15,250 bases of DNA from Promethearchaeota archaeon (GTDB taxonomy: Archaea > Asgardarchaeota > Lokiarchaeia > Sigyniarchaeales > SOKP01): positions 1-15,250 of the forward strand of contig JAHLWP010000061.1 in assembly GCA_019057865.1 (NCBI GenBank), in the 5' to 3' direction. This document shows positions 1-15,250 of this stretch, in pieces. The notes beneath the pieces are model-generated. The model searched no databases and was not told the DNA's origin. It saw only the letters and a list, made by a program, of their open reading frames with translations. The stretch's first letter is position 1. Every line of letters begins with the position of its first letter. Made by a program: the position numbers and the translations under genes.

Positions 1-30
1 TGATTCGTTACTCGGAGGTTCTTTTGACAT
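1..30 (-). CDS. Possible 5' end of a gene running off the left edge (MSKEPPSNES...)
   Basis: ATG at 30..28, frame open to the window edge, same strand as and 65 nt downstream of the E2-like gene. Only 10 codons are visible. Confidence 0.3.
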   Translation of the reverse strand, partial: MSKEPPSNES

Positions 31-95
31 GTTTTTCAATTACCATTTCAATAAAAACAACTTAATAATAATAACTAGATTTTCTTCATATTTAA

Positions 96-920
96 TTATA
101 ATTCTAATTCCTTCAATCCATAACCTGATTCAATTAATTCATTTAGTTTGTTAATAAAACGAGTAGCAGGGGCACCGTCTAACACATCGTGATTAAATAA
201 TACAGTAATCGTTAAATATTCTCTAATTTCGATTTTATCATTAATAACTCCAGGTTTTTTTGCAATTCCTCCAACCGCAAAAGCTAATGGATGAGAAGTA
301 GTTGGAATTGGCCATCCATAGAATTTTCCGAACATTCCAACCGCAGTTACTATAATTGTACCCATTATTTTCTTAGCTCTTAAGGGATTTTTCAATAGTT
401 TTTTTATTAAAAATCTTCTTATTGATTTCGGAAGACTCGTATATAATTTAACCCATCTTTTAATTGAATCCTCTCCAAGTACAGTAGCTCCATCAACTTC
501 CTCCGACTGTGCTGCTCTAATTTCTTCATGAATTTCTTTAACACTTTTTATATTTGTTTTTCTTATAACTACCGACATTACAACTTTCATTCCTTTAGCT
601 ACCCTTTCGACAGGAACTGAGATATCAACATCATCAAAAGATATAATCTTACGTTTACCCTTCATCATTGAATGAACTTCTTTAAATTCACTCGCTGCCT
701 TTCCTATGCACTTCAATAGCCAAGCAGTAAATGAGAACTTTATAGCAGTCTCTTTTTCATAATTATCAATGATTTTCCGTCCATAGGTTACATCAACTTC
801 AAATAGTCCCTTTACGTAATGTTTATTATCTCCAACTGCAAGAAAATCAAGAGTAGGAATTCTATCTTTAGGAAATTTAGATATCTTATATGAACCAATG
901 ATTTCTTCTTTCTTGGTCAT
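96..920 (-). CDS. Stand-alone 2-oxoacid dehydrogenase acyltransferase (E2) catalytic-domain protein, no lipoyl domain
   Basis: C-terminal NHDVLDGAPATRF matches the E2/CAT HxxxDG motif, with KFSFTAWLLKCIGKA and MGTIIVTAVG upstream. ATG at 920 is preferred over TTG at 929. Confidence 0.85.
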   Translation of the reverse strand: MTKKEEIIGSYKISKFPKDRIPTLDFLAVGDNKHYVKGLFEVDVTYGRKIIDNYEKETAIKFSFTAWLLKCIGKAASEFKEVHSMMKGKRKIISFDDVDISVPVERVAKGMKVVMSVVIRKTNIKSVKEIHEEIRAAQSEEVDGATVLGEDSIKRWVKLYTSLPKSIRRFLIKKLLKNPLRAKKIMGTIIVTAVGMFGKFYGWPIPTTSHPLAFAVGGIAKKPGVINDKIEIREYLTITVLFNHDVLDGAPATRFINKLNELIESGYGLKELEL

Positions 921-997
921 TCTAATCAATTACAAATCTTAGATTCGTCTTCCCTAAATCTAAAAGTAAAAATAAAATTTAAAAGATTGAATATATA

Positions 998-1036
998 AAA
1001 AAAAATAAGCTTTATTACTAATAATAAGCTTTTTTT
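998..1036 (-). terminator. Imperfect inverted repeat with T-tract downstream of merA, possible terminator
   Basis: AAGCTTTATTA...TAATAAGCTT flanked by A/T runs. The context is AT-rich, so support is weak. Confidence 0.3.
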
Positions 1037-1155
1037 ATTTAAGTTGGTTTTTTAGATTTCTTTAACCAATTTAATAAATAATATGCATTAGATAAGAGGA
1101 TTTAAATTAATTATTTATATCATTTAAATTTAAGAATGAATGAATTATTTATTTC

Positions 1156-2559
1156 TCACTCAATGCAACAACTTATAACAGATATATCTCGTTTGAATGA
1201 TTGAGCTGTAAGTTTAATAGCTTCTGACAATGTAGGAAAAACGTGTATTGTGTTAATAACATCATCGAGTGTCATATGGTTCTTAATAATCATAACACCC
1301 TCATGAATTAAATCAGCAGCATTAGTAGATAAAATGTGAATACCTAAAATTTCTTCGGTTTTTCTATTGATAACGATTTTTAGTACTCCTCTATCTTCAT
1401 TAATGATTTTTGATTTAGGTACAAAACCAATTGGAATAGTATTACATCTGCAATCAAAACCCATTTGATTTGCTTGGAGATCAGTTAAGCCGACACTTCC
1501 AACTTGAGGGTTGGTAAAAATGGCATGTGGAACTACTCGATTTTCCATTTTAATCTGTTCATCTGATAAAGCATTAGTAGCAGCAATCATACCTTCTCTT
1601 GCAGCAACAGTTTCGTACATTGGTTCACCTATAACATCTCCAGCAGCCCATATATTTTCTCCTACCTTCATAAATTCGTTAACGATAATTTGTCCCTTCT
1701 TTCCTAAATTTATTCCAATTTCTTCTAATCCTAGATTGTGAGTGTTAGGCTTCCTTCCTGTTGCAATTAAAATTTGTTCTGCTTTAAATGTTGACTCATT
1801 GTTATTATGAAGTACTTTTATTACGTTCTCATTACCTTCATTTTCGATTTCAAGTATATTTGCATTTGTATAAATCTCGATTCCCTCATCTTGAAGATAA
1901 TTTTTTAAATATGTAGAGATCTCAGGTTCTTCATTTGGTACTATGCTATCCAGCATTTCAAAAAGATGAACTTTTGTCCCAAATCGAGAAAATAATTGAG
2001 CAAATTCAACCCCTAAAGCACCCCCACCTAAAACTATCATAGTCTTTGGGAGCTTTTTTAATTGAAGTGCTTCAATGTTAGTGATATAATCAACTTGGTC
2101 AATACCCTTTATTGGTGGAATAAAAGATGAGGAACCTGTAGCAATTATAAATTTCTTTGCTTTGAATGTTTTTTGGTTATCCACTTGAATTTCTGAGTTT
2201 GAAACAAATTTAGCATTACCTTCAACAAGATCAACGTTTGGTAATTTTTTCAAAACATTTTCATATTTATCATGCTGCAATTGGTTGATGAGATTATTTT
2301 TTCCCTCGATGACTTTTTGAAAATTAAAAGAAATCGATGATTTGATCCCTTCAAATCTTTGCTTTCTCGATTCGTAAATTAAATCTCCGATATTTAGTAA
2401 ATATTTTGTTGGAACACACCCTACATTTACACATGTTCCACCTAATCCTATTGCATCGTTATTTACCATTAGGGTTTTAATTTTTAAATCATTAGCTTTC
2501 ATTGCAGCAGCAAATCCAGCAGCGCCTCCGCCAATAATAATTAAATCATAAAAATCCAT
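1156..2559 (-). CDS. merA: Mercuric reductase, core form without NmerA domain
   Basis: GGGAAG FAD motif, redox GGTCVNVGCVP, GGGALG NAD(P) motif, C-terminal vicinal cysteines SCCIE. HVFPTLSE lacks the catalytic His of lipoamide dehydrogenase. Adjacent to a merB-like gene. AGGTGA RBS precedes ATG 2559 (the track starts at GTG 2568). Confidence 0.9.
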   Translation of the reverse strand: MDFYDLIIIGGGAAGFAAAMKANDLKIKTLMVNNDAIGLGGTCVNVGCVPTKYLLNIGDLIYESRKQRFEGIKSSISFNFQKVIEGKNNLINQLQHDKYENVLKKLPNVDLVEGNAKFVSNSEIQVDNQKTFKAKKFIIATGSSSFIPPIKGIDQVDYITNIEALQLKKLPKTMIVLGGGALGVEFAQLFSRFGTKVHLFEMLDSIVPNEEPEISTYLKNYLQDEGIEIYTNANILEIENEGNENVIKVLHNNNESTFKAEQILIATGRKPNTHNLGLEEIGINLGKKGQIIVNEFMKVGENIWAAGDVIGEPMYETVAAREGMIAATNALSDEQIKMENRVVPHAIFTNPQVGSVGLTDLQANQMGFDCRCNTIPIGFVPKSKIINEDRGVLKIVINRKTEEILGIHILSTNAADLIHEGVMIIKNHMTLDDVINTIHVFPTLSEAIKLTAQSFKRDISVISCCIE

Positions 2560-2784
2560 TTTTATCACCTATTAATTAAAATTATAAATTTTTGATACAA
2601 TATTGTCATTTGATTAATAGATAATAATACTTAATTCTAACTATAATTCTTGTTATTATAAAATATTAAAAAAAGAAGATTTCTATTCTTAACCAATAAC
2701 TAATTTTAATATTCAATTCACATTGTAAAAATGATTAAAGAAAATTAATTTTTGTGAGATCCCTAACACTAAATTATTCAGTTA

Positions 2785-3645
2785 TTATTCGCAACATTTA
2801 TCCTTATTATCAGTTGATGGTATCTCTAACCATTCAATATTTTTTTGATCTTGGTCAATAGATATTTCACAACTTGGAACACAGTCTATATCTAATCTTT
2901 TCTCAAAAATCTTCCGAGCTAAAATTAGTGCCTGTTTCATATTTATAGTCGTACCTTTTTGATCTGGATGTTGTTTTTCCCACTCTTTAAGACTTTCATT
3001 TGAAATAAAAAATAAAGTAGTAGAACATTGGGATCCCAGATATGTGATTAGATTTTTAGGTTGTTGCAATGCAATTTGCTCATCTTTAATTTCAATTTTA
3101 ATTTCTTGTTTAGTTATGGGATCTTTTGACAAAATCGTAGCATCTTGATTGTATGTGAAAGGAAGACCCAGTGCATCAATAACACAAGCAGCCTCAATTG
3201 GTTTGAGAGTTCTTCCATCTTTTAATATAACCTTATGCTCATATCCAATTTTAGAGATACGTGGAACTATTTTGTCATCAACATCTTTTTTTCTATGAAT
3301 TACTCTTCTCTTCTCAAGTTTTGTTATTATTTCTTCTAGATCCTGAGGAGAAATATTTAATTCTTTTCCAATTTCATTAAAAGTGTTAATAATATCGTAC
3401 TTTGAGTATTGTTCTACAATGTAATCAAAAACTTTTTCCTGACTTGGAGTCATCCCAACTTGAGGAAATCCTCTTTTAACAAATTGTAAAACAAGTTTTT
3501 CTTCAAGCTGTTCGTCGTAATTTAATTTTAGAGCTCTTTTAATTTCTTCAATGTCCGGAAAATGATGATATTGCTTATATTCACTTAACAAATATGTTAG
3601 AATCTTTCTTTCTTTAAGTGTTAATTTTGAGTCGATACTTCTCAC
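2785..3645 (-). CDS. merB: Organomercurial lyase MerB-like protein with extended N- and C-termini
   Basis: AACVIDAL (C154, D157) and SQCSTTLFF (C207) match the MerB Cys-Asp-Cys triad. ATILSKDPITKQEIKIEI matches the S-x-C-P-x-T-G segment, and SLKEWEKQHP matches the C-terminal helix. Directly upstream of merA. Confidence 0.8.
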   Translation of the reverse strand: MRSIDSKLTLKERKILTYLLSEYKQYHHFPDIEEIKRALKLNYDEQLEEKLVLQFVKRGFPQVGMTPSQEKVFDYIVEQYSKYDIINTFNEIGKELNISPQDLEEIITKLEKRRVIHRKKDVDDKIVPRISKIGYEHKVILKDGRTLKPIEAACVIDALGLPFTYNQDATILSKDPITKQEIKIEIKDEQIALQQPKNLITYLGSQCSTTLFFISNESLKEWEKQHPDQKGTTINMKQALILARKIFEKRLDIDCVPSCEISIDQDQKNIEWLEIPSTDNKDKCCE

Positions 3646-3802
3646 TTTTCAACATCCTTTGTAAATGTAAAATAGTTAGAAATAAACCTATTCCAACAAT
3701 GGTCTAATATTTATGCTAATTAATAATTTTTTATTTTTATTCTCTAGATTAAGAAAAAAGAAATATTAGATTTATGTTAAAAATTCGAGATCGCCATCCC
3801 GT

Positions 3803-3838
3803 CTCAACCAATAACTAGCATTTGCTTATTGGCATCAT
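3803..3838 (-). promoter_or_regulatory. Eukaryote/Lokiarchaeia-type SECIS element in the 3' UTR
   Basis: Minus-strand RNA: A-UGAU GCCAAUAA GC AAA UGCUAG UUAUUGGU UGAG. It has an AUGA/UGA core, an 8-bp upper stem and AAA 10 nt above the core, and starts 8 nt after the TAA of a gene with in-frame UGAs. Confidence 0.8.
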
Positions 3839-3846
3839 TGATTTTT

Positions 3847-4059
3847 TTATATTGATTTTTTTTCTCTTTCTTGAATTTGTAATCAGGGAACGCTACCATA
3901 TGCACAAAGTACTCAATTTCATCCATGAGGATTTTCTTTCCCAGTAATGATTTCTTTACAATTTTGACATTCAAGACTCATAAGTCATTGATTTTCCTTT
4001 ATTTCTACTGCATTTGAATATCTGCAAAATGGACATTCTACTAGGCATTTATATATCAT
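3847..4059 (-). CDS. GDCCVxC-domain selenoprotein, 70 aa, four in-frame UGA codons read as Sec
   Basis: Manual translation: MIYKCLVECPFCRYSNAVEIKENQULMSLECQNCKEIITGKENPHGUNUVLCAYGSVPULQIQEREKKSI*. UGA at 3987-3985, 3921-3919, 3915-3913 and 3885-3883. Fits the family pattern CPxC...C...ECxxC...GDCCVFCSYGSVPCPPIQ as I recall it. SECIS immediately downstream. Confidence 0.85.
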
Positions 4060-4084
4060 ATTGGTCAGTTAAAAAATTATTAAT

Positions 4085-4100
4085 AGATTTATTTAAATCT
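4085..4100 (-). promoter_or_regulatory. TATA-like box (TTTAAATA) within a perfect palindrome AGATTTA-TT-TAAATCT
   Basis: Lies about 30 nt upstream of ATG 4059, the spacing expected for a leaderless or short-leader archaeal transcript. The sequence is AT-rich, so chance is possible. Confidence 0.35.
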
Positions 4101-4162
4101 TAAGTAAAAACTCTTAAGTATATTAAAAAGTATATTGAGAAAAAAATACTTCTAGTATTAAA

Positions 4163-4417
4163 CTAACTGTCTTCGATAATCTTTTTAATCTCATCTGGTT
4201 TTGGAATCCCAATAATTTTATGTTTCTCATCAACAATGATGGAGGGAACAGCTTTAATGTCATATTTCTCAATTTTTTCCCGTATCTCTTCTTGAATTAG
4301 ATCTTGTAAATTGTATTCAATTATTTCACATTTTTCGCAAATGTTATTCCTCAATATTTCAATAGCATTTTTACATAAATTACATCCAGCACTAAAAATT
4401 TCAAATTTATGTCCCAT
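4163..4417 (-). CDS. Small thioredoxin/glutaredoxin-fold protein (CxxC plus a second CxxC)
   Basis: FEIFSAGCNLC active site, ICEKC, and the IKAVPSIIVD cis-Pro motif. Confidence 0.85.
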   Translation of the reverse strand: MGHKFEIFSAGCNLCKNAIEILRNNICEKCEIIEYNLQDLIQEEIREKIEKYDIKAVPSIIVDEKHKIIGIPKPDEIKKIIEDS

Positions 4418-4576
4418 TTAAGTTTAACTCCAATTTATTATATTGATTACTATATACTATCATTACTTAAATATTTTCAATTATCATCCAAGTACATTTT
4501 GGATATGAAAATCTAATAAAGGATTAAATAATTTTAATAACCTTATAAGAGACTAAATTAATCCACACTTTTCTGC

Positions 4577-4927
4577 TTATGATTGAATTGACTTTTTATG
4601 AGCCCACTCCATGAGAGGTATCATTGCATCTTTCACTTCTATGCCATCTTGCGTCAATGTATATTCGACTCTTGGTGGAATTTCTGCGAAATTTTCTCTT
4701 TTTATAAGCTCTGCTTTTTCTAATTCTTTTAATCTTATTGATAAGGTTCTTGGACTTATTCCATCTAAATTTTTCATAAGTTCATTAAATCTAATTCTTT
4801 TATTATTACTAATTGTACCAATAATTACCAATGCCCATTTTTTACTTAAAACTTCAATAACTCCTTCAATCGGGCAAAAACATATCCCATTTTCCTCTGT
4901 ATTGTTACATTTAGAATTAGTATTCAT
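4577..4927 (-). CDS. HxlR-family (DUF24) winged-helix transcriptional regulator with Cys-rich N-terminus
   Basis: CPIEGVIEVLSKKWALVII, RFNELMKNLDGISPRTLSIRLKELE and EIPPRVEYTLT motifs. Confidence 0.92.
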   Translation of the reverse strand: MNTNSKCNNTEENGICFCPIEGVIEVLSKKWALVIIGTISNNKRIRFNELMKNLDGISPRTLSIRLKELEKAELIKRENFAEIPPRVEYTLTQDGIEVKDAMIPLMEWAHKKSIQS

Positions 4928-5084
4928 ATTGATAGTAAATCACCTTATTTTTACTTACTATGCTACTATACACTTGTTAATTTAAATACTTTACTATTTA
5001 TACTTAATATATAATATATAGCAATTAATTAAAAATTTATTTATTGGAATTAATATAAAAAAAATTTTTGGAGGAAATAAAAAA

Positions 5085-5219
5085 ATGTCTAATCAACTTA
5101 AGCCAGTAAAAGATTTGGAACCTCTTAAGGAAGATGATAGTTGCGTTTGCGGTTGTATAAGCTCAAATGATAGCAACTGTGAAGAAGAAACAACATCAAA
5201 TGAAAAATGTTGTGAGTAA
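5085..5219 (+). CDS. 44-aa acidic Cys-rich micropeptide, metallothionein-like
   Basis: MSNQLKPVKDLEPLKEDDSCVCGCISSNDSNCEEETTSNEKCCE*. GGAGG RBS at 5070-5074, divergent from the HxlR gene. Not in the ORF track. Confidence 0.7.
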   Translation: MSNQLKPVKDLEPLKEDDSCVCGCISSNDSNCEEETTSNEKCCE

Positions 5220-5395
5220 AAACGAATAGGGTTTACATAGATGCAACCTTGACTCTAGTCGACCATCACTCTTGTCTACAAGAAATTCGCAAAAAATATG
5301 CAATCTAATACACGATTTATCAAATTAAAATTAAATCTTAAACTAAAATCTGAAATATTACTTTTTTTTCCATTTATGGCGATTGATTATTTAGG

Positions 5396-5578
5396 TTATG
5401 AATGTAGAAATGAAATTGATTTTAAAAAAGGCTTTTTTTGAGTAATATAAATTCTTATATAGTAATGTAATTCATCCACAAAATTCTTTAAATTGAATTT
5501 CGGAGCAATAATGCTTTCTTCCCAAGATCTATAACTTGTTTGTGGGAGCTGGCTGTTAATGAAATAAGATTTTGTCAT
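5396..5578 (-). pseudogene. Chimeric ORF: a probable gene start fused to the repeat sequence
   Basis: ATG directly follows the glycosyltransferase stop and has an AGGAGA RBS. After about 27 codons the frame runs into the 83-bp repeat. Confidence 0.45.
5415..5497 (+). repeat. 83-bp direct repeat, copy 1
   Basis: ATTGATTTTAAAAAAGGC...AAATTCTTTAAATTGAA, 81/83 identical to 13160..13242. Confidence 0.95.
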
Positions 5579-6058
5579 CTATAATCTCCTCTGAGAATTT
5601 ATAATAGCAAGTTGAGTTCCCTTACCATATCTTATCCACATCTTACAAAAATCTATAAAATTATTTGAAAAATCATGAAATACAATAGATCTACTCTCTT
5701 TCGCAAAGTAGTATCCTCTTTTTCTTAGTCTTAAACATAAATCTGTGTCTTCTCCTCCAGCAAAAGAAAAATTGGTATTGAATCCTCCAATTTCGATTAG
5801 TGGTTCCTTTTTAAAGCAGCAATTTACTGTGGGGATGTAATTCAAGTGTCTAGGAGCTTCGAGTATCTTATGTTCTGTATAATATTGACTAAGAATATCA
5901 TTATTAACGGATTTAACTACACCACCACTACCAACTAATTTCACTTCGCTTTCATTTAGCTTTAGAGTAACAAAATTTATCCAATATCTATGAACAATGA
6001 CATTATCGTCAGTAAAAGCTACTAAGTCATTATTTGAAGTCGTGAATAGCCCTCTTTT
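5579..6058 (-). pseudogene. N-terminally truncated family 2 glycosyltransferase
   Basis: The frame is open upstream of the track's GTG: KRGLFTTSNNDLVAFTDDNVIVHRYWI (DxD region), then IGGFNTNFSFAGGEDTDLCLRL and RYGKG. The N-terminal GT2 strands and a start codon are missing, with a stop at 6145. Confidence 0.75.
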
Positions 6059-6228
6059 ACAAAATCGTAATCGAGAAGCTCGATCTTTTCTGGAATTATT
6101 TTCAAGAGGAGTTTTCTTTTTCCTCGAACAATTTTTTGAACCTTATCAAACTCTTTATCCCCTTCTCTTAAAAAGATCAGTCTTTTTTTCCCAGATGCTG
6201 AAATTTCCATGCCTTGTATTTTACCCAT
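6022..6228 (-). pseudogene. Probable C-terminal fragment of a pyridoxamine 5'-phosphate oxidase-like (FMN split barrel) gene
   Basis: KIQGMEISASGK and LLKIIPEKIELLDYDFVKEGY resemble the PNPOx-like C-terminal strands. Resemblance from memory only. Confidence 0.35.
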
Positions 6229-6350
6229 TAGGTGAGTGTGGATTTTTCGCTCGTTTACAATAGTTTTTGGAATTTATAATTTATAGATGAAGATTTTAAA
6301 TTATTAACTGATATCTTTTTTATTACTAAATATATTAATGATGATATTTA

Positions 6351-6476
6351 ATGGCAAAAATAGAAGTTGCATGCAAAGCATGTGGAATGAAGTTTAAAGG
6401 AAAAACGGAAGAAGAAGCAAAAAAGAAGTTGATGGAACACTCTCAAAAGGCTCATCCTATGCCCAAAAAGATGTAA
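6351..6476 (+). CDS. 41-aa C2H2-type small metal-binding protein (DUF1059-like)
   Basis: MAKIEVACKACGMKFKGKTEEEAKKKLMEHSQKAHPMPKKM*, with CxxC...GxTEEE...HxxxxH. A T-tract follows at about 6509-6522. Not in the ORF track. Confidence 0.75.
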   Translation: MAKIEVACKACGMKFKGKTEEEAKKKLMEHSQKAHPMPKKM

Positions 6477-6893
6477 ATAGACGTTTAATAGGTCTTTATA
6501 ATATTCACTTTTTTCTTTTTTTAATGAGTATATAAGTATCCTAATATTTATTTAAAGGTCTACTTATCGACATTATTCATTCTAGAGAAAAACTCCTTTA
6601 CTTCTTTACAAAATTTGGAAAAAATTACAATAGAAGTTAATAAAAGTTTCTTAGAATGAGGAAGGATGTATTTTATTTGAGATAAAAATCAACCATTTTT
6701 TGATGTCTAAAATATTTATAAAAAAGATTGAAGGAATGGAATAGTCTTGATGTAAAGTTTTGAAGGTGTAAAATACTTCAAATGAGTTAAAGGATAGTTT
6801 TTCAGTATACTCAGAAAATGTGAGTAGGTTAATATTAGAATCTCCATATTATTTAATATTAAATAATTAAAAACTTGAAAAATCTGATTTAAT

Positions 6894-7517
6894 ATGAGAA
6901 AATTTTATGATATTTCATTGGTAATTAATAATGAAACAATAGTATATCCAGGAAATGAACCCGTAACTCTAAAACAATATGCTTTTAGAGAAAATGCCCC
7001 TGTAAACGAATCTTTAATTACTATGGGCTGCCATACAGGATCGCATGTAGATTCTCCATTTCATATTAGAACAAATGGAAAGAAAGCAAGCGAATTGCCT
7101 TTAGAATCATTTTATGGTAAATGCAAAGTATTAGATCTAACTCACATTGATTTAGAAATCCGTAAAACTGATTTACAGAAATATAACATTGAAAAAGATG
7201 ATATAATACTTTTAAAAACAACTAATTCGAATCATTACAAAAGTTTCAAGGAAGATTTTGTATATATAAAGATGAACGCAGCTAAATATTTGGTTGAAAA
7301 ACAGATCAAAACGCTTGGATGTGATTATTTAAGCGTAAAAAAATTTGGTGGAGACAATAAGGTACACGAATTGATAATAAACAATATGACGTTATTTGAA
7401 GGCCTTAATCTAGCAGAAGTTTCTCAAGGGGAATATATTTTTGTAGGCTTACCTTTGCGACTTGAAGCAGATGGTGCTCCTGCTAGAGTTATTTTAATAC
7501 AGAAAAAAGATAATTAA
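6894..7517 (+). CDS. Cyclase-family metal-dependent hydrolase (kynurenine formamidase-like)
   Basis: HTGSHVDSPFH, GCDYLSV, EGLNL and DGAPARV motifs. Confidence 0.9.
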   Translation: MRKFYDISLVINNETIVYPGNEPVTLKQYAFRENAPVNESLITMGCHTGSHVDSPFHIRTNGKKASELPLESFYGKCKVLDLTHIDLEIRKTDLQKYNIEKDDIILLKTTNSNHYKSFKEDFVYIKMNAAKYLVEKQIKTLGCDYLSVKKFGGDNKVHELIINNMTLFEGLNLAEVSQGEYIFVGLPLRLEADGAPARVILIQKKDN

Positions 7518-7538
7518 AGTCAAAAATTTAAGAAATAA

Positions 7539-8486
7539 TTAAAATTTATATATACGACTATTTTTTCTTTCATTTGCTATATAATCACTTTTACCATACG
7601 GATGACCACCAAATCCGTGACGCATTATTGCCACCGCTCTATAAGAATCATTTGGTTTTATCCTTGATTTAAATAATTCTATAACGGCCTGCGTTATCAC
7701 AGGGATAGGTATCTCTTTATTAATTGCCTCTTGAACTAGCCAATTAACTTCACCTGTATCTTCTATAAATGCTGGAACATCATCGATTTTGTTATTTAAA
7801 TCCCTTAATCCTTTTTCCATTAATTCGACAAGCCAACTTCGTATTACTGACCCATTTGAATACATTTTAAAAATATCTGGTAAGTTTAAATCAAATTCAG
7901 ACCTATTCAACAGTTCTACACCTTCACCAATTGCTTGAAGCATTCCAAATTCAATACCATTATGAACAAGTTTAACGAAATGTCCACTCCCAGAAGGACC
8001 ACAATATAAATACCCATTCTCAACAGCTAATTTTTTAAGGATGGGTTCAGCTAATTCAAATCCTTTTCGATCTCCACCAATCATAAAACAAGCGCCATTT
8101 CGGGCCCCTTCCAAACCTCCGCTAGTTCCGCAATCTAAAAAGTAAATGTGTTTTTCTTCAAGATCTTTTGCTCTTCTTTGTGAATCTTTATAAAATGAAT
8201 TGCCCCCGTCTAATAATACATCTCCTTTTGCAAGGAAAGGAGTTATTTCATTAATCACTTTATCAACAAGTGATCCAGCAGGTAAAGAAAGAAAAATAAC
8301 TCTTGGAGCTATTAAGGAATTTTTAAAACTCTCATAATCAACAAGTACCTTAATACCTTTATTTGCTAAATCTTTTCTCTCTGAAATATCTTTTCCAACA
8401 ACAATTATTCCTTTATCAACACACTGTTGAGCAAAATTTCCACCCATTTTCCCTAGTCCAATAATTCCTAATTCCATTAAATCCAC
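7539..8486 (-). CDS. gnd: 6-phosphogluconate dehydrogenase (decarboxylating), short YqeC-type
   Basis: GLGKMG, DGGNS, DCGTSGG, GHFVKLVHNGIEFG, SVIRSWL, DTGEVNW and MRHGFGGH motifs. The start may be ATG 8477. Confidence 0.93.
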   Translation of the reverse strand: MDLMELGIIGLGKMGGNFAQQCVDKGIIVVGKDISERKDLANKGIKVLVDYESFKNSLIAPRVIFLSLPAGSLVDKVINEITPFLAKGDVLLDGGNSFYKDSQRRAKDLEEKHIYFLDCGTSGGLEGARNGACFMIGGDRKGFELAEPILKKLAVENGYLYCGPSGSGHFVKLVHNGIEFGMLQAIGEGVELLNRSEFDLNLPDIFKMYSNGSVIRSWLVELMEKGLRDLNNKIDDVPAFIEDTGEVNWLVQEAINKEIPIPVITQAVIELFKSRIKPNDSYRAVAIMRHGFGGHPYGKSDYIANERKNSRIYKF

Positions 8487-8586
8487 ATGTCTATTTTACT
8501 ATTAAATACGGTACTTCATTATATAATTATAATGGTTTTAAATCATTAAAGGAATCTTTATAAAATCCCTATATTCATTTATTATA

Positions 8587-10626
8587 ATGCCTCGATCGAT
8601 TGTTTTCGGGAATCAAAATTTATTAGTATGTATAGATAAAAGTTATAACATTCGAGATCTCTATTATCCTTATGTAGGAATGGAAAATCATCTTGAAGGC
8701 CATGAATGTAGAATAGGGATTTGGGTGGAGGGGAATTTTAGCTGGTTAGAGTCTGATTTATGGGAAAAAAATTTAAAATACGCTAGTGAAAGTCTTATTG
8801 GAGAATCTGAATTTGAGAATCAAACTATAAATTCAAAAATGACTATTAAAGACTGTGTTTATTATAAAAAGAACATTTTTTTAAGAGAAATTCAAGTAGA
8901 AAACCTTTCAAATGAAGATAAGGAATATAGAATTTTTTTTAGCCACGATCTTCAGATAAAAGGAACACGTATAGGTATAACAGCTTATTTTGATCCAGAA
9001 ACCAAAAGTGTGATCCATTACCTAAGGGATAGGTGGTTTCTCTTTAATGGAAAAGGAGATAGTATTGGCATTGATGGATTCACAATAGGTAAGACGCATT
9101 TTGGGGCTTCAGTTGGATCTTACAAGGATGCTGAAGATGGATATCTTTCGGGAAATCCTATTGATCAAGGAACTGTAGATTCTACTATTCAAGTAAATGT
9201 AAAAGTTAAAGGAAAACAGAAAGGAGTAGTTAAATATTGGTTCACAGTTGGATTAGATTCTACTGAAGTTAAGCAATTGAATGATTTTATTATTACTAAA
9301 GGGATTTCAAATGCTATAGAGGAGACACTTGCATTTGATAGAACTTGGGTAAAAAAATCAAACCTGGACTTCTTTGATTTACCAGATAATGTAATCAAAT
9401 TGTTAAAACAAAGTTTGTTATTAGTTAAAAGTCAAATGGACAAAAGTGGTGCTATTATTGCAGCAAATGATACAGATATCATGCAATTTAATCGAGACCA
9501 TTATTCATATCTTTGGCCAAGGGATGGCGCTCTAGTGGCTTTATCATTATCTAAAGCAGGTTATGCTTTCTTAACAAGAAAATTTTATCAACTGTGTGGA
9601 AAATTAATCACATCTAAAGGATTTCTTTTACATAAATATAATCCTGATGGGAGCATAGGATCATCGTGGCATTCTTGGTTTAATAAAGAAGAAGGATTAA
9701 TATTGGCAATTCAAGAAGATGAAACTGCGCTAGTGTTATATACATTAGGGGAGTATTATAAGATTTATAAAGACATGGATTTATTAGCAGAATTATATTC
9801 TAAATTCATTATACCCGCCGCTGATTTTATGGTAGAATTTCGGGATGAAAGAGGTCTTCCACTTCCAAGTTATGATCTTTGGGAGGAGAGAAGAGGAATT
9901 CACGCTTTTACCACTGTTTCTGTAATTGCCGGATTAAGATCTGCTGCTAAATTCGCGGAATATTTTGGTGAGATAAAAAGAGCTAAAATTTACAGAGAAA
10001 CCGCCGAAAAGATGAAAGCTGCGATGATCAAATATTTATTTGATATAAAATTGAACAGATTTTTACGTACGATTAATTTTCAAAAAGATGGTGGTATAAT
10101 CAAGGATATGATAATGGATGCGAGTATCTATGCAATCTTTGAATTTGATGTATTTTCAATTAACGACCCTATGGTACAGTCAACCATGAATCAAGTAATA
10201 GAAAGATTAAGGGTTAAAACTGATGTAGGAGGGATTGCAAGATATGAAAACGACTATTATCATAAGGTTTCGGAGGATGTTATTAATGTGCCGGGAAATC
10301 CATGGTATATATGTACATTATGGATTGCTGAATGGTATTTGAAGAATGCTAAGGAGGGGATTAATTCAAAAGATAATTTAGATAGAGCTAAAGATATACT
10401 AAAATGGGTTGCAGATCATTCATTATCAACTGGAGTATTGGCAGAACAAGTCAATCCTTATACGAATGAACCTATCTCCGTGAGTCCACTTACGTGGAGT
10501 CACGCCACATTAATATTAACTGTACTTGAATATCTTGATAGTTTCTCAATCTTCAAAGCTTGTCCTCATTGTGGTCAACCTCTCTCATTTAAAGATAGTT
10601 TTAAAATAAAGAAAGAGAGGCATTAA
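8587..10626 (+). CDS. Glycoside hydrolase family 15 (glucoamylase-like)
   Basis: YSYLWPRDG, QEDETA, DLWEERRG, GIARYENDYY, LAEQV and SPLTWSHA motifs. Confidence 0.92.
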   Translation: MPRSIVFGNQNLLVCIDKSYNIRDLYYPYVGMENHLEGHECRIGIWVEGNFSWLESDLWEKNLKYASESLIGESEFENQTINSKMTIKDCVYYKKNIFLREIQVENLSNEDKEYRIFFSHDLQIKGTRIGITAYFDPETKSVIHYLRDRWFLFNGKGDSIGIDGFTIGKTHFGASVGSYKDAEDGYLSGNPIDQGTVDSTIQVNVKVKGKQKGVVKYWFTVGLDSTEVKQLNDFIITKGISNAIEETLAFDRTWVKKSNLDFFDLPDNVIKLLKQSLLLVKSQMDKSGAIIAANDTDIMQFNRDHYSYLWPRDGALVALSLSKAGYAFLTRKFYQLCGKLITSKGFLLHKYNPDGSIGSSWHSWFNKEEGLILAIQEDETALVLYTLGEYYKIYKDMDLLAELYSKFIIPAADFMVEFRDERGLPLPSYDLWEERRGIHAFTTVSVIAGLRSAAKFAEYFGEIKRAKIYRETAEKMKAAMIKYLFDIKLNRFLRTINFQKDGGIIKDMIMDASIYAIFEFDVFSINDPMVQSTMNQVIERLRVKTDVGGIARYENDYYHKVSEDVINVPGNPWYICTLWIAEWYLKNAKEGINSKDNLDRAKDILKWVADHSLSTGVLAEQVNPYTNEPISVSPLTWSHATLILTVLEYLDSFSIFKACPHCGQPLSFKDSFKIKKERH

Positions 10627-10627
10627 A

Positions 10628-11710
10628 TTGAAAGCTATTGTAGTCACACCGGGTAAAGCTAATTCAGTAAGAATAGCAGAGCTATCTCAACCGAAAATAA
10701 AAACTAACGAAATACTAATAGAAGTTATAAGAGTGGGGATTGATGGAACAGACAGGGAAATAATCGATGCAAAATATGGTTTAGCTCCTGAAAATGAAGA
10801 ATTCTTAGTATTGGGACATGAAGCATTAGGAAAAATTAGAGAAATCGGTGCAGATGCAAAAGAAAATGCTAACAACCTTAAAGAAGGGGATATTGTTGTT
10901 CCACTCGTACGGAGACCTGATGATTGCTCCTATTGTCAAAATGATATGCAAGATATGTGTATTAAAGGTGATTATACTGAAAGAGGAATTAAGGGTCAAC
11001 ATGGATATCTTTCTGAATACTTTACTGAAATCCCTAAATATTTAGTTAAAATCCCCAAAGATATTGAAAAGATTGCTATCTTACTTGAACCTTTAAGTAT
11101 TGTTGAGAAAGGTATAAGACAGGGCTGGAGCATCCAGAACAGAATTCCTTGGGAACCAAAAAATGCACTTGTATTAGGACTCGGGGTAATTGGAATTTTA
11201 GGGTGTCTTGTTTTAAAAGCAATGGGTATTGATGTTTATGTTTATTCAATGGAAGATGATTCAAATTCAAAAGTGAAATTAATTAAAAAAGTAGGTATTA
11301 ACTACATTTCTGCTTCTAAAAAGGATATGCTTAAATTGCCAACTTTGATAGGTAGAAATATTGATTTTATATTAGAAGCAACAGGAAATTCATCAGTAGC
11401 ATTAAATGCAATGTCTTTAATTGGAATTAATGGTGCCTTATGTTTAACGAGTGTAACAGGAGGACTAAATAGAGTAACTATCTGTGCAGATTGTTTAAAT
11501 TTAAATTTAGTTTTAGGAAACAAAGTTATTTTTGGAACTGTAAATGCTAATCGTATAGATTTTGAAAAAGGGGTCAAACATTTACAATTATATAATAAAA
11601 AACATCCAGGGCTTCTGGATAAATTGATAACTAATCGGTTTAAACCCGAAGAATTTAAAAAAGCTTTTGAAAATTTTAAAGATTTAAAAGCGGTGGTTGA
11701 ATTTAAATGA
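10628..11710 (+). CDS. Zinc-dependent glucose 1-dehydrogenase (MDR family)
   Basis: GIDGTD, LGHEALG, VRRP, ERGIKG, LLEPLS, and LVLGNKVIFGTVNA motifs. TTG start 1 nt after the GH15 stop. Confidence 0.88.
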   Translation: MKAIVVTPGKANSVRIAELSQPKIKTNEILIEVIRVGIDGTDREIIDAKYGLAPENEEFLVLGHEALGKIREIGADAKENANNLKEGDIVVPLVRRPDDCSYCQNDMQDMCIKGDYTERGIKGQHGYLSEYFTEIPKYLVKIPKDIEKIAILLEPLSIVEKGIRQGWSIQNRIPWEPKNALVLGLGVIGILGCLVLKAMGIDVYVYSMEDDSNSKVKLIKKVGINYISASKKDMLKLPTLIGRNIDFILEATGNSSVALNAMSLIGINGALCLTSVTGGLNRVTICADCLNLNLVLGNKVIFGTVNANRIDFEKGVKHLQLYNKKHPGLLDKLITNRFKPEEFKKAFENFKDLKAVVEFK

Positions 11711-11913
11711 GAATTACAATTTTAAATGAATGCCGTAGACTAGCATTAAACTATAATTATTCGCATGACAAAGAAGAGTCACTCTAAATTAAAAAAACAA
11801 CGGGAATTCTAGTACCCTTAATGATAGGCTTTCCTCCTAGAATTTCCGGATTGCTTTCGATAATATCTGACATTTTCTATGATACTCTATAGTAAAATAT
11901 ATTTAAATACATA

Positions 11914-12165
11914 TTGGAAAATCTTTTATTGAAAGAATCGCACCTAGAGAGAGGTGGTATGGTGAGAAACGTTGTAAAAGGATTAGACATTACAGCTCAA
12001 GCTTTGACGGATGGTAAAGAAATCCCTCAAGAAGCGATCGACTTATTCTCAAAAAAATTTATACCAAATTCTCTCTATAATATAATTGTCAATTTGGGTT
12101 GGAGACTACAGGCACGTAGATATGGGAAAAAAAAAAAAATAAGAGATAAAACTTACACTCGCTAA
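11914..12165 (+). pseudogene. Possible decayed hemerythrin-domain fragment or hypothetical ORF
   Basis: VKGLDITAQALTDGKEIPQEAIDLF loosely resembles hemerythrin-like N-terminal helices, but the His ligands are absent and the tail runs through a poly-A tract. Confidence 0.25.
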
Positions 12166-12202
12166 GTTTTTCCAAAATTCTTTTGTTACCATTAATTATA
12201 AC

Positions 12203-13054
12203 CTATAACCCGACCATTTCAATGCTTATATCCCAAATCTTTTTAGCAAGCGTCTCATTGTAGGAATCTTTTGATGATTTTTGTTCTTGTTTATTAATAA
12301 AATACTTCCCAGTTATCGCTTCTACTTCTGGTGAGGATGCTAAATATATCGAAGTTTCAGCTCCTTTTTCAGCCGTTTTGAAAAAGCGTCTTACTATACC
12401 TTTTTTAGGTTTAGATCTGTCTACACCTAAATTTGTGTTTACAACTCCCGGATGAACAGTGTTCAGAGTAACTCCTGTGCCTTCTAATCTTCTACTAAAT
12501 TCATAAGACGTTAACATCAGAGCTAATTTTGAATCTCCATATAATCCCATAAATCGACGTTTTTTATGCTCACCTTGTAGGTCCTCAAAATCAATTGTTC
12601 CAAGTTTATGTGCTGCTGAAGCTACATTTATTATTCTACTTGGGGCGCTCCTTTTCAGTGTATCAAGTAATAGATTAGTCAATAAAAATGGTGCTAAATG
12701 ATTTACCGCAAAATTCATTTCGAATCCATCAACCGATGAAACTCGCTTCGAGAGCATTACTCCGGCATTATTTATAAGCACATGCAGATTCTGGTACTTA
12801 TTCTTGAACTTTGTTGCCAAATTTCGAATTGAATCCAAGGATGATAAATCACATAATAATAAATCCACATTTTTATTTCCTGTTTTTTCAATTATCTCTT
12901 TTAGCGCGGGTTCTCCCCGCTCCTTATTTCTACAGACAATCACTACAGTTCCATTCATTTCTGCTAATCCCATAGCCGTAGCTTTACCAATACCCGAATT
13001 TGCTCCTGTGATCATACAAATTTTTCCTTCCATACTCATATTTTCTATCTTCAA
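12203..13054 (-). CDS. Short-chain dehydrogenase/reductase, retinol dehydrogenase-like
   Basis: TGANSGIG, LINNAG, VNHLAPFLLTNLL, RIINVAS, YGDSK and HPGVVNT motifs. The start is more likely ATG 13039 or 13033. Confidence 0.93.
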   Translation of the reverse strand: MKIENMSMEGKICMITGANSGIGKATAMGLAEMNGTVVIVCRNKERGEPALKEIIEKTGNKNVDLLLCDLSSLDSIRNLATKFKNKYQNLHVLINNAGVMLSKRVSSVDGFEMNFAVNHLAPFLLTNLLLDTLKRSAPSRIINVASAAHKLGTIDFEDLQGEHKKRRFMGLYGDSKLALMLTSYEFSRRLEGTGVTLNTVHPGVVNTNLGVDRSKPKKGIVRRFFKTAEKGAETSIYLASSPEVEAITGKYFINKQEQKSSKDSYNETLAKKIWDISIEMVGL

Positions 13055-13159
13055 CTCAATCTTAATCTAATTTACGTATAAATTAATATTAGTAAATAAT
13101 TCATAATTTATCAAAATAGCATCTATATCTTATAAATCAGTCTTTAAAAATAGAAATTC

Positions 13160-13242
13160 ATTGATTTTAAAAAAGGCTTTTTCTGATTAATATAAATTCT
13201 TATATAGTAATGTAATTCATCCACAAAATTCTTTAAATTGAA
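13160..13242 (+). repeat. 83-bp direct repeat, copy 2
   Basis: 81/83 identical to 5415..5497. Confidence 0.95.
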
Positions 13243-13533
13243 AGCTATTAAATCATTATTTGAACTTAAAATCCCTAAATATCTAGAATCCCTGGTACCA
13301 AGAGAGTACTAGGGTGAATTTCTCTAATTTAATACCTAATTCTATTATGAATTCGTGAAACAACCGAAATTTTAAATAAATTGTTTACTATAAATGCCAA
13401 TAATTGAGAAAAAAGCATGATTATCTCAATTTTATTTATTTACTCAAATAGATTCTATTTCTTAAAAGATTTAAGTATTAAACGCTATTCATAATATAAG
13501 AAGAAATGTCTAAAAATAATTAAGATACTCCCT

Positions 13534-13935
13534 ATGAATAAAGAAATCGCACTTAAATGGTTGAAACAAGCTAAACATGATTTAGAAATAGCTGAGAAAA
13601 ATATCTCTATTGGAGGGTATGATATTGCAGCTTTTCTTTCTCATCAATCAGTAGAAAAATTATTAAAATCAATTTTTGCTCTGGAAGGAAAAAAAATTCC
13701 CAAAATTCATTATATTGAGGATTTAGGTAAAAGATTACATTTATCGAATCAAATCTTGGATAAAGTCATCGATTTGACAGGAGATTATACTTTTACTCGA
13801 TATCCTGATGTCGCTGAACAGTTACCATATGAAATTTATACTAAGGATATAGCCATAAGTAAAGTAGAAAAAGCAAAACATATATTTGCTCAATTAGAAA
13901 ATAGATATAAGGAGTTATTAAAAAATGAAGAATGA
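13534..13935 (+). CDS. HEPN domain protein
   Basis: WLKQAKHDL, AAFLSHQSVEKLLKS, PKIH and TRYPD motifs. Confidence 0.9.
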   Translation: MNKEIALKWLKQAKHDLEIAEKNISIGGYDIAAFLSHQSVEKLLKSIFALEGKKIPKIHYIEDLGKRLHLSNQILDKVIDLTGDYTFTRYPDVAEQLPYEIYTKDIAISKVEKAKHIFAQLENRYKELLKNEE

Positions 13936-14245
13936 TAAGTTAATTAAACTTTTTAAAAAGACATTATTACCACAGATCCTTAAAGAATATAACCCCCAAG
14001 CAATCATAATTTTCGGATCTCGAATAAAAGGGAATGCTACCTTGAATTCTGACTTAGATATCATAATCGTGTCAAAATTGTTTCAAGAAATTCCATTTAT
14101 TGAACGAATGTCATCTTTATTAAAAAAGTTTGATTTTCCTAGACATATTGATTATATCTGTTATACTCCAGAAGAATTTGAAAGAATTAAGGGTGGATCT
14201 TCTCTCATCATAGACGCGTTAGAATATGGAGAAATCATCTCTTAA
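13925..14245 (+). CDS. Minimal nucleotidyltransferase (MNT), partner of HEPN
   Basis: IIFGSRIKG...SDLDIIIV and YTPEEF motifs. Overlaps the HEPN gene end. Confidence 0.9.
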   Translation: MKNDKLIKLFKKTLLPQILKEYNPQAIIIFGSRIKGNATLNSDLDIIIVSKLFQEIPFIERMSSLLKKFDFPRHIDYICYTPEEFERIKGGSSLIIDALEYGEIIS

Positions 14246-14477
14246 AAACAACCAATATCTAATTCATTGGATTGGGACAACTCTAGAACGTTCTTTTAAA
14301 TTTTTAAATGACCACCTAGAATTAAAAGCAGTAGGAAAAGAAGAAAGAATTGACTATACCCTGAAATGGAAACGATTATAATTATAGCCTTGTAATATTG
14401 AATATATTCTCATAGTCATAACGAATTAAAAACACCTAAACAAAGGATATTTAATTAAGTGCTCTTATATTATAATT

Positions 14478-14705
14478 ATGGAATTTTCTTTCGATAAAGT
14501 TGCTAATGCCCTCTACATTCGTTTTTCAAATGAAAAGATCTTAAATTCTGATGAAATAGCAGAGGGAATTATCATTGACTATGGCAAAGACGAGAATATT
14601 GTAGGTGTAGAAATTTTAAACTTTACAAGCAGAAAGTTGGACCTAAATGATCTTGTTAAAATGATTATAGAAGAATTAATACCAAAACTAGCACAATGCC
14701 AATAA
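14478..14705 (+). CDS. DUF2283 family protein (putative antitoxin)
   Basis: FDKVANALYIRF...IIIDYGKDENIVGVEIL. Confidence 0.85.
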   Translation: MEFSFDKVANALYIRFSNEKILNSDEIAEGIIIDYGKDENIVGVEILNFTSRKLDLNDLVKMIIEELIPKLAQCQ

Positions 14706-14821
14706 AGTTCACTAAGAATGCCCTAGAACGAATGAGGGTTCGAAATATCTCCAAAGGGGAGATAATTGATGCTATTGAAAATCCAGAAAAATATTATGAT
14801 ATAAATTACCTTCTTATCTAA
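14696..14821 (+). pseudogene. Truncated DUF4258 family (RelE-like putative toxin) gene
   Basis: MPIKFTKNALERMRVRNISKGEIIDAIENPEKYYDINYLLI* overlaps the DUF2283 stop. The usual FTxHAxxRM His is Asn, and the frame ends after 41 aa at the hicA 3' end. Confidence 0.7.
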
Positions 14822-15056
14822 ATAATACCTTCATAAATTCTTTCTTATCTATTTCGAGGTAATCTGTGATATCCGATAAAATGTTATTAATTGTACCAAT
14901 TTTCAAACTCTTATGATTTGGAATAGTTATATGAAAATCTCCTTTAATTGTGGTAGTTAATCTCATAAGACTCCCCGTCTGCCTAGAGATTTCAAATCCA
15001 AATCTTTTTAATAATTTGGATAATTTCTGCCCGCTAATATTACGCGGGATTTTCAT
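14814..15056 (-). CDS. hicA: HicA-family toxin, catalytic His apparently replaced by Leu
   Basis: LKRFGFEISRQTGSLMRL...ITIPNHKSLKIGTINNIL. Confidence 0.85.
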   Translation of the reverse strand: MKIPRNISGQKLSKLLKRFGFEISRQTGSLMRLTTTIKGDFHITIPNHKSLKIGTINNILSDITDYLEIDKKEFMKVLFR

Positions 15057-15250
15057 AAAGTTATAACCTCTTCCTTTACAAAATGTAACCGTATAATGCG
15101 AGGTCTTTCTTTCTCATCAAAATGACATTTTATGGCATCTCTAATTGAATCCTTTAATTCAGTAAGATTATCAGCTTCAGTATGGATAGAGGCTTCTAAA
15201 GCTCTTGCTTCATAACCTCCTTCTAAAGATTCTTCAATAAGGAATATTAT
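15053..15250 (-). CDS. HicB-like antitoxin, 5' end outside the window
   Basis: IIFLIEESLEGGYEARALEASIHTEADNLTELKDSIRDAIKCHFDEKERPRIIRLHFVKEEVITL*. Its TGA overlaps the hicA ATG (ATGA). Confidence 0.8.
   Translation of the reverse strand: MIFLIEESLEGGYEARALEASIHTEADNLTELKDSIRDAIKCHFDEKERPRIIRLHFVKEEVITL

Follow-up and report, generated by a model that had tools for sequence, protein, structure and literature searches.

The GDCCVxC family of small proteins (NCBIfam NF041374) is listed as 'Hypothetical protein GOS_B', with one selenocysteine (Sec), in a 2026 review of prokaryotic selenoproteomes covering 119 selenoprotein families with 1-3 Sec each (PMC13188914). Its bacterial members carry zero or one Sec and use an in-frame bacterial Sec insertion sequence (SECIS) element. 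For Lokiarchaeia an AUGA_GA element with an A-rich loop, a type I 'eSECIS-like' element, has been described (PMC4989117, PMC11227280). Both the family with its bacterial selenoprotein status and the use of Sec with a eukaryote-like SECIS in Lokiarchaeia are already known. Here we analyze a stretch of 15,250 nucleotides from a Promethearchaeota archaeon of the Lokiarchaeia (assembly GCA_019057865.1, contig JAHLWP010000061.1, positions 1-15,250; hereafter the window), in which a gene of 70 codons located between a thioredoxin-like gene and a MerB-like gene almost certainly encodes a GDCCVxC-family protein with four UGA codons decoded as Sec.

Among archaeal selenoproteins, lokiarchaeial HdrA, VhuD and PrxL (PMC4989117, PMC11227280) share with this gene the AUGA..GA kink-turn core, the unpaired As in the apical loop and the location of the SECIS in the 3' untranslated region (UTR), and they likewise use one SECIS for several UGAs. 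They belong to unrelated protein families, and HdrA, which has up to four Sec, is much larger, whereas the protein described here would carry four in 70 residues. The Sec residues of the four-Sec protein are probably metal ligands and not residues of hydrogenase or heterodisulfide-reductase subunits as in the Loki proteins. The fullest survey of the Asgard selenoproteome reports seven families (PMC11227280), and GDCCVxC is absent from it. The accessible literature contains no archaeal GDCCVxC member and none with more than one Sec.

A related theme, Sec at Cys-rich sites that contact metals or metalloids, encoded by genes linked to mer, hgc or ars, is found in SaoL (MerB-like), SaoC, MbdU, Sec-containing HgcA and HgcB, and ArsM-fusion selenoproteins (10.1101/2022.07.06.499078; PMC13188914). 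These are bacterial proteins of other families, with 1-3 Sec and bacterial SECIS elements, and none is a GDCCVxC protein. Kindred genes occur close to the four-Sec gene, with a SaoL/MerB-like lyase adjoining it in the window and HgcAB-like and ArsM proteins encoded beside it in relatives. In proposed task, the closest counterparts are MerP and the NmerA domain, small soluble Cys-rich takers of Hg(II) that act by MerT and MerA.

Results

A reading frame with four in-frame TGA codons

The gene is located on the minus strand and comprises the following features.

3847..4059, minus strand: GDCCVxC-family selenoprotein coding sequence (predicted), 70 codons, ATG at 4059-4057 and TAA at 3849-3847
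3985..3987, minus strand: UGA codon 25, read as Sec; TGA in 24/24 orthologs; invariant column, Cys in the all-Cys Asgard forms
3919..3921, minus strand: UGA codon 47, read as Sec; TGA in 24/24; on the D of GDCC, first selenol of UxU
3913..3915, minus strand: UGA codon 49, read as Sec; TGA in 24/24; on the second C of GDCC, invariant Cys column
3883..3885, minus strand: UGA codon 59, read as Sec; TGA in 24/24; on the last family Cys (..PCP), invariant column
4090..4097, minus strand: TTTAAATA, archaeal TATA-box-like motif, putative promoter ca. 35 nt upstream of the ATG; same in a second copy of the gene on contig C61

A first-pass annotation had described a minus-strand frame of 70 codons with six Cys, TGA at codons 25, 47, 49 and 59, a terminal TAA and a SECIS behind it, invisible to standard gene callers. 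All of these features were found again on re-reading the sequence, and the standard open reading frame (ORF) listing of the window omits the frame. The four TGA codons are the only in-frame stops before the TAA, and five of the six Cys are conserved. All four UGAs fall inside 35 codons, and the SECIS lies ca. 45 nt beyond the last of them. At the 29% G+C of the genome, the chance of 70 codons without TAA or TAG is about 1%, and a second frame with at least four TGA exists in the window, antisense to merA. Since an open frame alone is weak evidence, the case rests on the family match, the invariant TGA columns and the covarying SECIS.

Family assignment and the Cys/Sec pattern

The translation, with U read as C, matched NF041374 with 44.3 bits (E 1.6e-11) against a curated cut-off of 40 bits, which upholds the family membership proposed at first pass. 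The alignment placed residues 7-64 on positions 3-57 of the 58-position model, and the same stretch with the TGAs treated as stops scored 31.2 bits. A Pfam search of the selenoprotein gave nothing above threshold. The archaeal form resembles the bacterial GDCCVxC/GOS_B proteins in this hidden Markov model match, in size, in the layout CxxC..C..CxxC..[CC]VxC..C, in eight of nine Cys columns and in having mer and ars genes as neighbors. It differs from them in its four Sec and in a eukaryote-like SECIS placed in the 3' UTR. The literal signature G-D-C-C-V-x-C is absent from the four-Sec clade, which has H-G-U-x-U-[VIM]-x-C instead; the GDCC of the family is replaced by HG-U-x-U, preceded by an insertion of three residues.

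The Cys and Sec positions were compared in an alignment of 41 Asgard Sec and Cys forms (A2), which are 59-75 residues long. All-Cys Asgard forms contain nine Cys in the order CxxC, C, CxxC, CC, C, C, and the total of nine thiols and selenols is retained in the four-Sec clade. The framework CxxC-12-C-5-CxxC ... C-x2-C-x6-C is present in a small stand-alone protein, and the invariant columns are C9, C12, C25(U), C31, C34, C49(U), C52 and C59(U). U25, U49 and U59 therefore occupy invariant Cys columns. U47 takes the place of the D in GDCC, and a variable residue stands where the family has the first C of the CC pair, so that DCC has become UxU, in agreement with the earlier reading of these positions as family Cys and of the motif as UNU. 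Both CxxC pairs are Cys in every sequence; of the five other positions four are Sec, and only C52 is Cys. As judged from the aligned sequences, the conserved part of the family is the Cys/Sec-rich C-terminal half and not the zinc ribbon that the CxxC pairs are predicted to form.

Conservation of the TGA codons in Asgard genomes

When 400 genomes of the phylum were scanned with NF041374 in read-through mode, four-TGA matches came from ca. 24 of them. These belong to the window's own order, where they are distributed over two families and at least nine genera and include three single-contig genomes (G138, 6.0 Mb; G143, 4.3 Mb; G135, 4.4 Mb). Matches to all-Cys forms (62-95 bits) were found in families f13, f16 and f18 and contain no stops, except for a damaged copy in genome G068. 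We retrieved 25 TGA-bearing loci, 24 of which were used in a codon alignment. The 24 orthologs align without gaps over 58 codons at 34-98% amino acid identity. At all four Sec columns 24/24 have TGA, and the five Cys columns mix TGT and TGC. There were no Trp or Arg codons at the TGA sites, no frameshifts and no stray TAA or TAG among these orthologs. The ratio of nonsynonymous to synonymous substitution rates (dN/dS, ratio of means) was 0.43 upstream of the first TGA, 0.35 from there to the second, and 0.31 beyond it. Low values before, between and after the TGAs indicate selection at the protein level and translation that continues through the TGA codons. An artefact of assembly or of the metagenome-assembled genome (MAG) is ruled out by the 25 copies in 24 genomes; the three single-contig carriers show that binning does not account for the gene.

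The TGA state follows the presence of the Sec-synthesizing enzyme SepSecS. This enzyme was found in 129/134 and 13/14 genomes of the two families with four-TGA forms and in 0/31, 0/22 and 0/12 genomes of the families with all-Cys forms, which indicates that the TGA state tracks the ability to make Sec. Close relatives carry the label 'Promethearchaeota archaeon', and one carrier is isolate bin41, the MAG whose selenoproteome is cited as the largest known from an archaeon. Public protein collections hold the orthologs only as miscalls with TGA translated as Trp, 69-77 residues long and on short contigs (P0002-P0025; L083); four of them carry the JGI/IMG name 'transcription elongation factor Elf1'.

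Two copies deviate from the common form. In the G141 copy (L073) the N-terminus is disrupted, and the four Sec codons and the SECIS are kept. The G068 copy (L074, G068:C22:9644-9796) belongs to an all-Cys lineage, lacks the first CxxC and contains two TGA; it is probably a damaged gene. We considered this copy as an intermediate Sec form and rejected it as such, because its TGAs are off the Cys columns and the N-terminal CxxC is gone.

The SECIS element

Two hairpins follow the gene.

3803..3838, minus strand: SECIS core of AUGA, 1 unpaired nt, 8-bp stem, 11-nt loop with conserved AAA, stem, 1 nt and GA, from fold and covariation
3779..3802, minus strand: second short hairpin CGGGAU-GGCG-AUCUCG followed by a U-run, from fold; in most copies, with register shifts

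The SECIS starts 8 nt past the TAA and reads AUGA-U-GCCAAUAA-(11-nt loop GCAAAUGCUAG)-UUAUUGGU-U-GA. The same architecture was found 3' of the last Sec codon in 25/25 copies; in the window it lies at 3838-3803, behind the frame, as the first-pass annotation had stated of the SECIS. Counted from the TAA or TAG, its start lies 5-42 nt downstream in 19 copies and 108 nt downstream in another; the remaining five have a frame that, when a terminal TGA is read through, extends into or beyond the SECIS. In a plain MAFFT alignment (A1), the ATGA and one loop A (A29) are invariant, and A28 and A30 on either side of it reach at least 90% conservation. In the 8-bp stem 90.8% of the cells were paired, compared with 63.5% in shuffles, and there were 51 double-changed cells versus 14.8 in shuffles, a value reached in 0/500 shuffles. 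Slid controls gave 30-55% pairing. After model-fitted alignment of 33 elements, 93.6% of the helix was paired, with double changes in 8/8 pairs. With a covariance model built from the SECIS elements, a further element was located in this genome, 3' of a multi-Sec gene of the MvhD/VhuD-like kind. The Rfam SECIS families gave no match in the window; such a miss of Loki SECIS elements was also reported by Mariotti et al. (PMC4989117). By its sequence and predicted fold, the element is an Asgard eukaryote-like type I SECIS. The comparative evidence shows a single Asgard-type 3' SECIS that would serve all four UGAs.

The second hairpin is less certain than the core. Its cells were paired at 62-78% in the model-fitted alignment, too low a level to establish it as belonging to the SECIS; it may be accessory to that element or an archaeal terminator. 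Some loci (L054 and L055, from G264 and G236, and also L066, L067 and L069) have lost the TAA, and a TGA is the first stop met in frame behind the last Sec codon. For G264 and G236 this terminating TGA belongs to the SECIS itself, as part of its AUGA core, at a distance of 45 nt from that codon.

Sec machinery and the reading of TGA

Genes for the synthesis and insertion of Sec were found in the same genome. SepSecS was detected with 488 bits (C41:173829-175130), and beside it a tRNA-Sec candidate with anticodon UCA and loop CUUCAAA (C41:175206-175322, minus strand). This candidate scored 34.6 bits against an Rfam threshold of 47 because it has a 31-nt insertion in the T-arm region, and ARAGORN found no tRNA-Sec in the genome. 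SelB (245 bits, cut-off 242; C41:178485-179405) lies 3 kb from SepSecS and the tRNA-Sec candidate. A PSTK-like gene scored 148 bits, under its cut-off, and SelD is encoded twice, with a single in-frame TGA in each gene.

TGA is otherwise an ordinary stop codon. It terminates merA, at the usual C-terminus of that family, and two other ORFs of the window, and in the genome it ends 197/1643 frames (12%) of at least 300 codons between stops. A genome-wide reassignment of TGA is ruled out by these observations, and the proposal made at first pass of recoding at specific sites agrees with them, as it does with the Sec machinery found and with the invariant TGA codons of the relatives. Each of the refuting conditions named at first pass was checked, and none applied.

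Predicted fold

An AlphaFold2 model computed with U as C and the 41-sequence alignment had a mean predicted local distance difference test (pLDDT) score of 93 and a predicted template modeling (pTM) score of 0.77. It consists of two β-hairpins with CxxC knuckles, followed by helices 50-54 and 60-68. Strands 4-8 and 15-19 flank C9/C12, and strands 28-30 and 37-39 flank C31/C34. The model suggests that the protein most likely folds as a small zinc ribbon in which the CxxC knuckles have been kept as Cys. From the same model we infer that U25, U47, U49, C52 and U59 would converge into a second site with five ligands.

Foldseek against the PDB gave weak zinc-ribbon matches (E >=1), and with VIA-align the best structural matches were small zinc ribbons and fingers (Z <=3.7). 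A profile search of PDB sequences found the zinc ribbons of TFIIS, Rpb9 and Elf1, again weakly (E >=0.01). The fold and profile searches thus gave no functional lead, and a generic likeness to zinc ribbons alone. Searches of Pfam and NCBIfam with the selenoprotein gave no match to a heavy-metal-associated (HMA) domain. MerP and NmerA have the β-α-β-β-α-β HMA fold with a GMTCxxC motif, whereas two β-hairpins and two helices are predicted for the four-Sec protein, and in place of their CxxC pair it would offer five ligands, four of them Sec.

Neighboring genes in the window

The selenoprotein gene is part of a co-directional cluster, all on the minus strand, in the order HxlR, thioredoxin, four-Sec gene, MerB-like, MerA.

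4577..4927, minus strand: HxlR-type winged-helix regulator at the head of the cluster (Pfam HxlR, 78 bits)
4163..4417, minus strand: thioredoxin-like protein of 84 aa, immediately upstream of the four-Sec gene (Pfam Thioredoxin_3, 42 bits)
2785..3645, minus strand: MerB-like organometallic lyase of 286 aa with N-terminal winged-helix domains (Pfam MerB, 69.7 bits, cut-off 27)
1156..2568, minus strand: MerA, core form (TIGR02053, 539 bits, cut-off 454, model positions 1-464)

The MerB-like protein has two N-terminal winged-helix domains and a C-x-x-D motif, and ends in ..KCCE; it matches the NCBIfam SaoL and MerB models under their cut-offs. MerA contains CVNVGC and a C-terminal vicinal Cys pair (..SCCIE) and has no N-terminal HMA domain, and the long-form MerA model NF010311 matches it from position 99 onward only.

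The module of thioredoxin, selenoprotein and MerB-like genes, 1758 bp long, occurs twice in the assembly with 93.1% identity (C61:1001-2758 and window 2703-4456). The C61 copy has the four TGA, unrelated flanks and a divergent HxlR-like gene adjoining it, and no MerA within reach. The two copies reflect a true duplication or else the presence of another strain in the MAG, for which contamination is 5%.

Gene context in other archaea and on bacterial plasmids

A metal(loid)-type gene or a gene for a 'UU' selenoprotein lies within 3 kb at 13/25 archaeal loci. Within this distance MerA was found at seven of the 25 loci, a heavy-metal P1B-ATPase with YHS domains at four and ArsM at two; the one ArsM that was scored (G165) passed its cut-off. 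The loci of G155 and G175 show a row in which HgcA-like and HgcB-like genes are followed by one for a small CC-rich protein, by two for UU selenoproteins that have SECIS elements of their own, and by the four-Sec gene in last place.

The UU proteins form a family of ca. 146-198 residues with adjacent selenocysteines (...HAD-UU-ADV..., ...DSGC-UU-EKV...), often encoded just upstream of the four-Sec gene. They have no Pfam or NCBIfam match, and their SECIS elements score 48-65 bits on the SECIS covariance model. UU loci are present in the window's genome (G000:C57:~15300-15946, plus strand; C23:88276-~88900, minus strand) and at L052 (1843-2286 and 2490-2858, plus strand) and L059 (1775-2281 and 2371-2811, minus strand). 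The HgcA-like corrinoid protein has NVWCAARG and a membrane tail and scored 174 bits with NF040863 and 176 bits with NF043039, both under cut-off. The gene for an HgcB-like 2x[4Fe-4S] ferredoxin ending in CC adjoins it, and both lie directly upstream of the UU proteins. Loci of this HgcA/HgcB-like kind are L052:38-1340 (plus strand), L059:3326-4608 (minus strand) and, in the window's own genome, C57:13680-14549 and C10:965-1729 (both plus strand). Asgard members of the fused-HgcAB clade are unverified (PMC10083202).

All-Cys homologs were found on 352 bacterial plasmids, and the gene context was inspected by opening seven plasmid loci. The gene directly follows MerT, MerTP or MerP at three of the seven, lies inside an ars operon next to ACR3 at one and precedes an HMA protein at one; two were uninformative on context. 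The association of the family with mer genes noted in the first-pass annotation was thus seen on plasmids. One of the three mer loci is a merR-merT-merP-GDCCVxC cassette without merA, located by a Tn3-family transposase in pAMBL1 from Pseudomonas aeruginosa PAO1 (NZ_KP873172.1, 5383-6714). Many of the 352 plasmid matches seem to stem from this cassette, since match statistics are identical in Pseudomonas, Klebsiella, Aeromonas and Enterobacter; of these plasmids only pAMBL1 was opened.

Discussion

The reading that we favor is a GDCCVxC selenoprotein with four Sec that has a site for thiophilic metals or metalloids, and we give this combination a probability of about 0.6. From the arrangement of its ligands and the company of its gene, the selenoprotein probably binds a metal or metalloid; that Hg is the main ligand has somewhat less than an even chance. 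In the proposed mechanism, the SECIS located 8 nt past the TAA would direct decoding of the UGAs by way of tRNA-Sec(UCA), PSTK, SepSecS, SelB and SelD. The resulting Sec4Cys1 set would provide a cytosolic site of very high affinity for Hg(II) or organomercury, possibly also for As(III). Metals and metalloids would be captured or buffered beside the enzymes that process them (MerB-like, MerA, ArsM and HgcAB-like), with the thioredoxin as the probable reductant. The protein may also stand in for the NmerA domain that the MerA of the window lacks. Bacterial GDCCVxC genes fill the slot right after merT/merP, and the four-Sec protein may work like MerP and NmerA although it is outside their family.

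A scavenger or chaperone for Hg or methyl-Hg was proposed in the first-pass annotation. That role is plausible, and the archaeal and bacterial gene contexts give it better ground; the context is one of soft metal(loid)s (Hg, As and Cu/Cd-type ATPases) and not of Hg alone. Hg-selenolate bonds are stronger than Hg-thiolate bonds, so passing the metal from the Sec4 site on to MerA's Cys pairs would be uphill, which favors a sink or buffer over a classical chaperone. A buffer, a sink or an aid to Hg-C chemistry is at least as likely as a hand-off chaperone. Besides the uphill hand-off, several observations weigh against the favored reading. There is no recognizable metal gene within 3 kb at 12/25 archaeal loci, and the all-Cys Asgard forms adjoin genes for NUDIX proteins, CoaBC, an M48 protease, ferritin and major facilitator superfamily (MFS) proteins, not mer or ars genes. 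The accessible literature holds no experimental study of the family and nothing beyond a table entry, and the name GDCCVxC was not found in it.

A more specific form of the metal-binding reading is tentative. It is possible, if doubtful, that a tetra-selenolate center binds Hg(II) or methyl-Hg near-irreversibly, or promotes Hg-C cleavage or HgSe formation, and that the protein is one module of a Lokiarchaeales selenoprotein set for organometals. This set, equally conjectural, would comprise the UU proteins, the ArsM-fusion selenoproteins and the HgcAB-like and MerB-like proteins, whose genes would travel together, each with its own eukaryote-like SECIS. If true, this would be the most Sec-dense prokaryotic protein known, one in which Sec serves to ligate metal instead of catalyzing redox reactions.

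The main rival, which we regard as unlikely, accepts the four Sec and assigns them a redox role: the protein would be a small oxidoreductase of the selenol/thiol type or an electron relay, and its non-ribbon Cys and Sec might bind an Fe-S or a second Zn center. Together with the adjacent thioredoxin, such a protein would re-reduce or service the MerB-like, MerA, ArsM and HgcAB-like proteins. Known selenoproteins are mostly redox enzymes, and Loki HdrA has Sec at Fe-S ligand positions (PMC4989117). The thioredoxin-like gene is immediately upstream and has been duplicated together with the selenoprotein gene, the UxU with a C and a further U could give selenenylsulfide or diselenide bonds, and the genes around the all-Cys Asgard forms show no specificity for metals. 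However, the Sec-bearing part has no thioredoxin fold and no CxxC or UxxC redox box, and a zinc ribbon with two short helices is predicted for the protein. The bacterial members follow the Hg(II) importers MerT and MerTP, or are found by MerP or HMA proteins, which is the usual slot of metal-binding partners. Moreover, a vicinal CC with a nearby C is a classic soft-metal motif.

The generic ribbon likeness could instead point to a zinc-ribbon factor that senses metal or binds nucleic acid, such as a mer/ars co-regulator with the Sec site as sensor. The weak matches to the ribbons of TFIIS/Rpb9/Elf1, MCM and ribosomal proteins would fit such a factor, as would the 'Elf1' naming of TGA=W miscalls in some databases and the HxlR regulator in the neighborhood of the gene. 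We consider it improbable: the matches are sub-threshold (E >=0.01, Z <=3.7) and reflect the generic CxxC..CxxC ribbon alone, the protein has no basic surface or DNA-binding domain, and the conserved part of the family lies in the other, Cys/Sec-rich half. That there is no selenoprotein at all, and that the frame is a pseudogene, a non-coding spacer or a gene whose first UGA terminates a 24-residue peptide, is most improbable, because its omission by standard gene callers, the chance TGA-rich open frame elsewhere in the window and the N-terminally damaged look of the G068 and G141 copies stand against four TGA invariant in 24/24 orthologs at 34-98% identity with no TAA, TAG or frameshift, a dN/dS of ca. 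0.3 downstream of the TGAs, a covarying SECIS in every copy and the occurrence of TGA forms only in lineages with SepSecS.

A conserved four-Sec member of 70 residues across an Asgard order implies that mini-genes with several UGAs escape homology-based searches and that the catalog of selenoproteins is incomplete. With its four UGAs close together and the last one ca. 45 nt from the SECIS, the gene would make a test case for decoding. For the family, the replacement by Sec of four of the five Cys outside the ribbon points to these as the working residues. Hundreds of bacterial mer cassettes on plasmids, clinical Pseudomonas and Klebsiella plasmids among them, contain the all-Cys version, which would there be an uncharacterized resistance gene.

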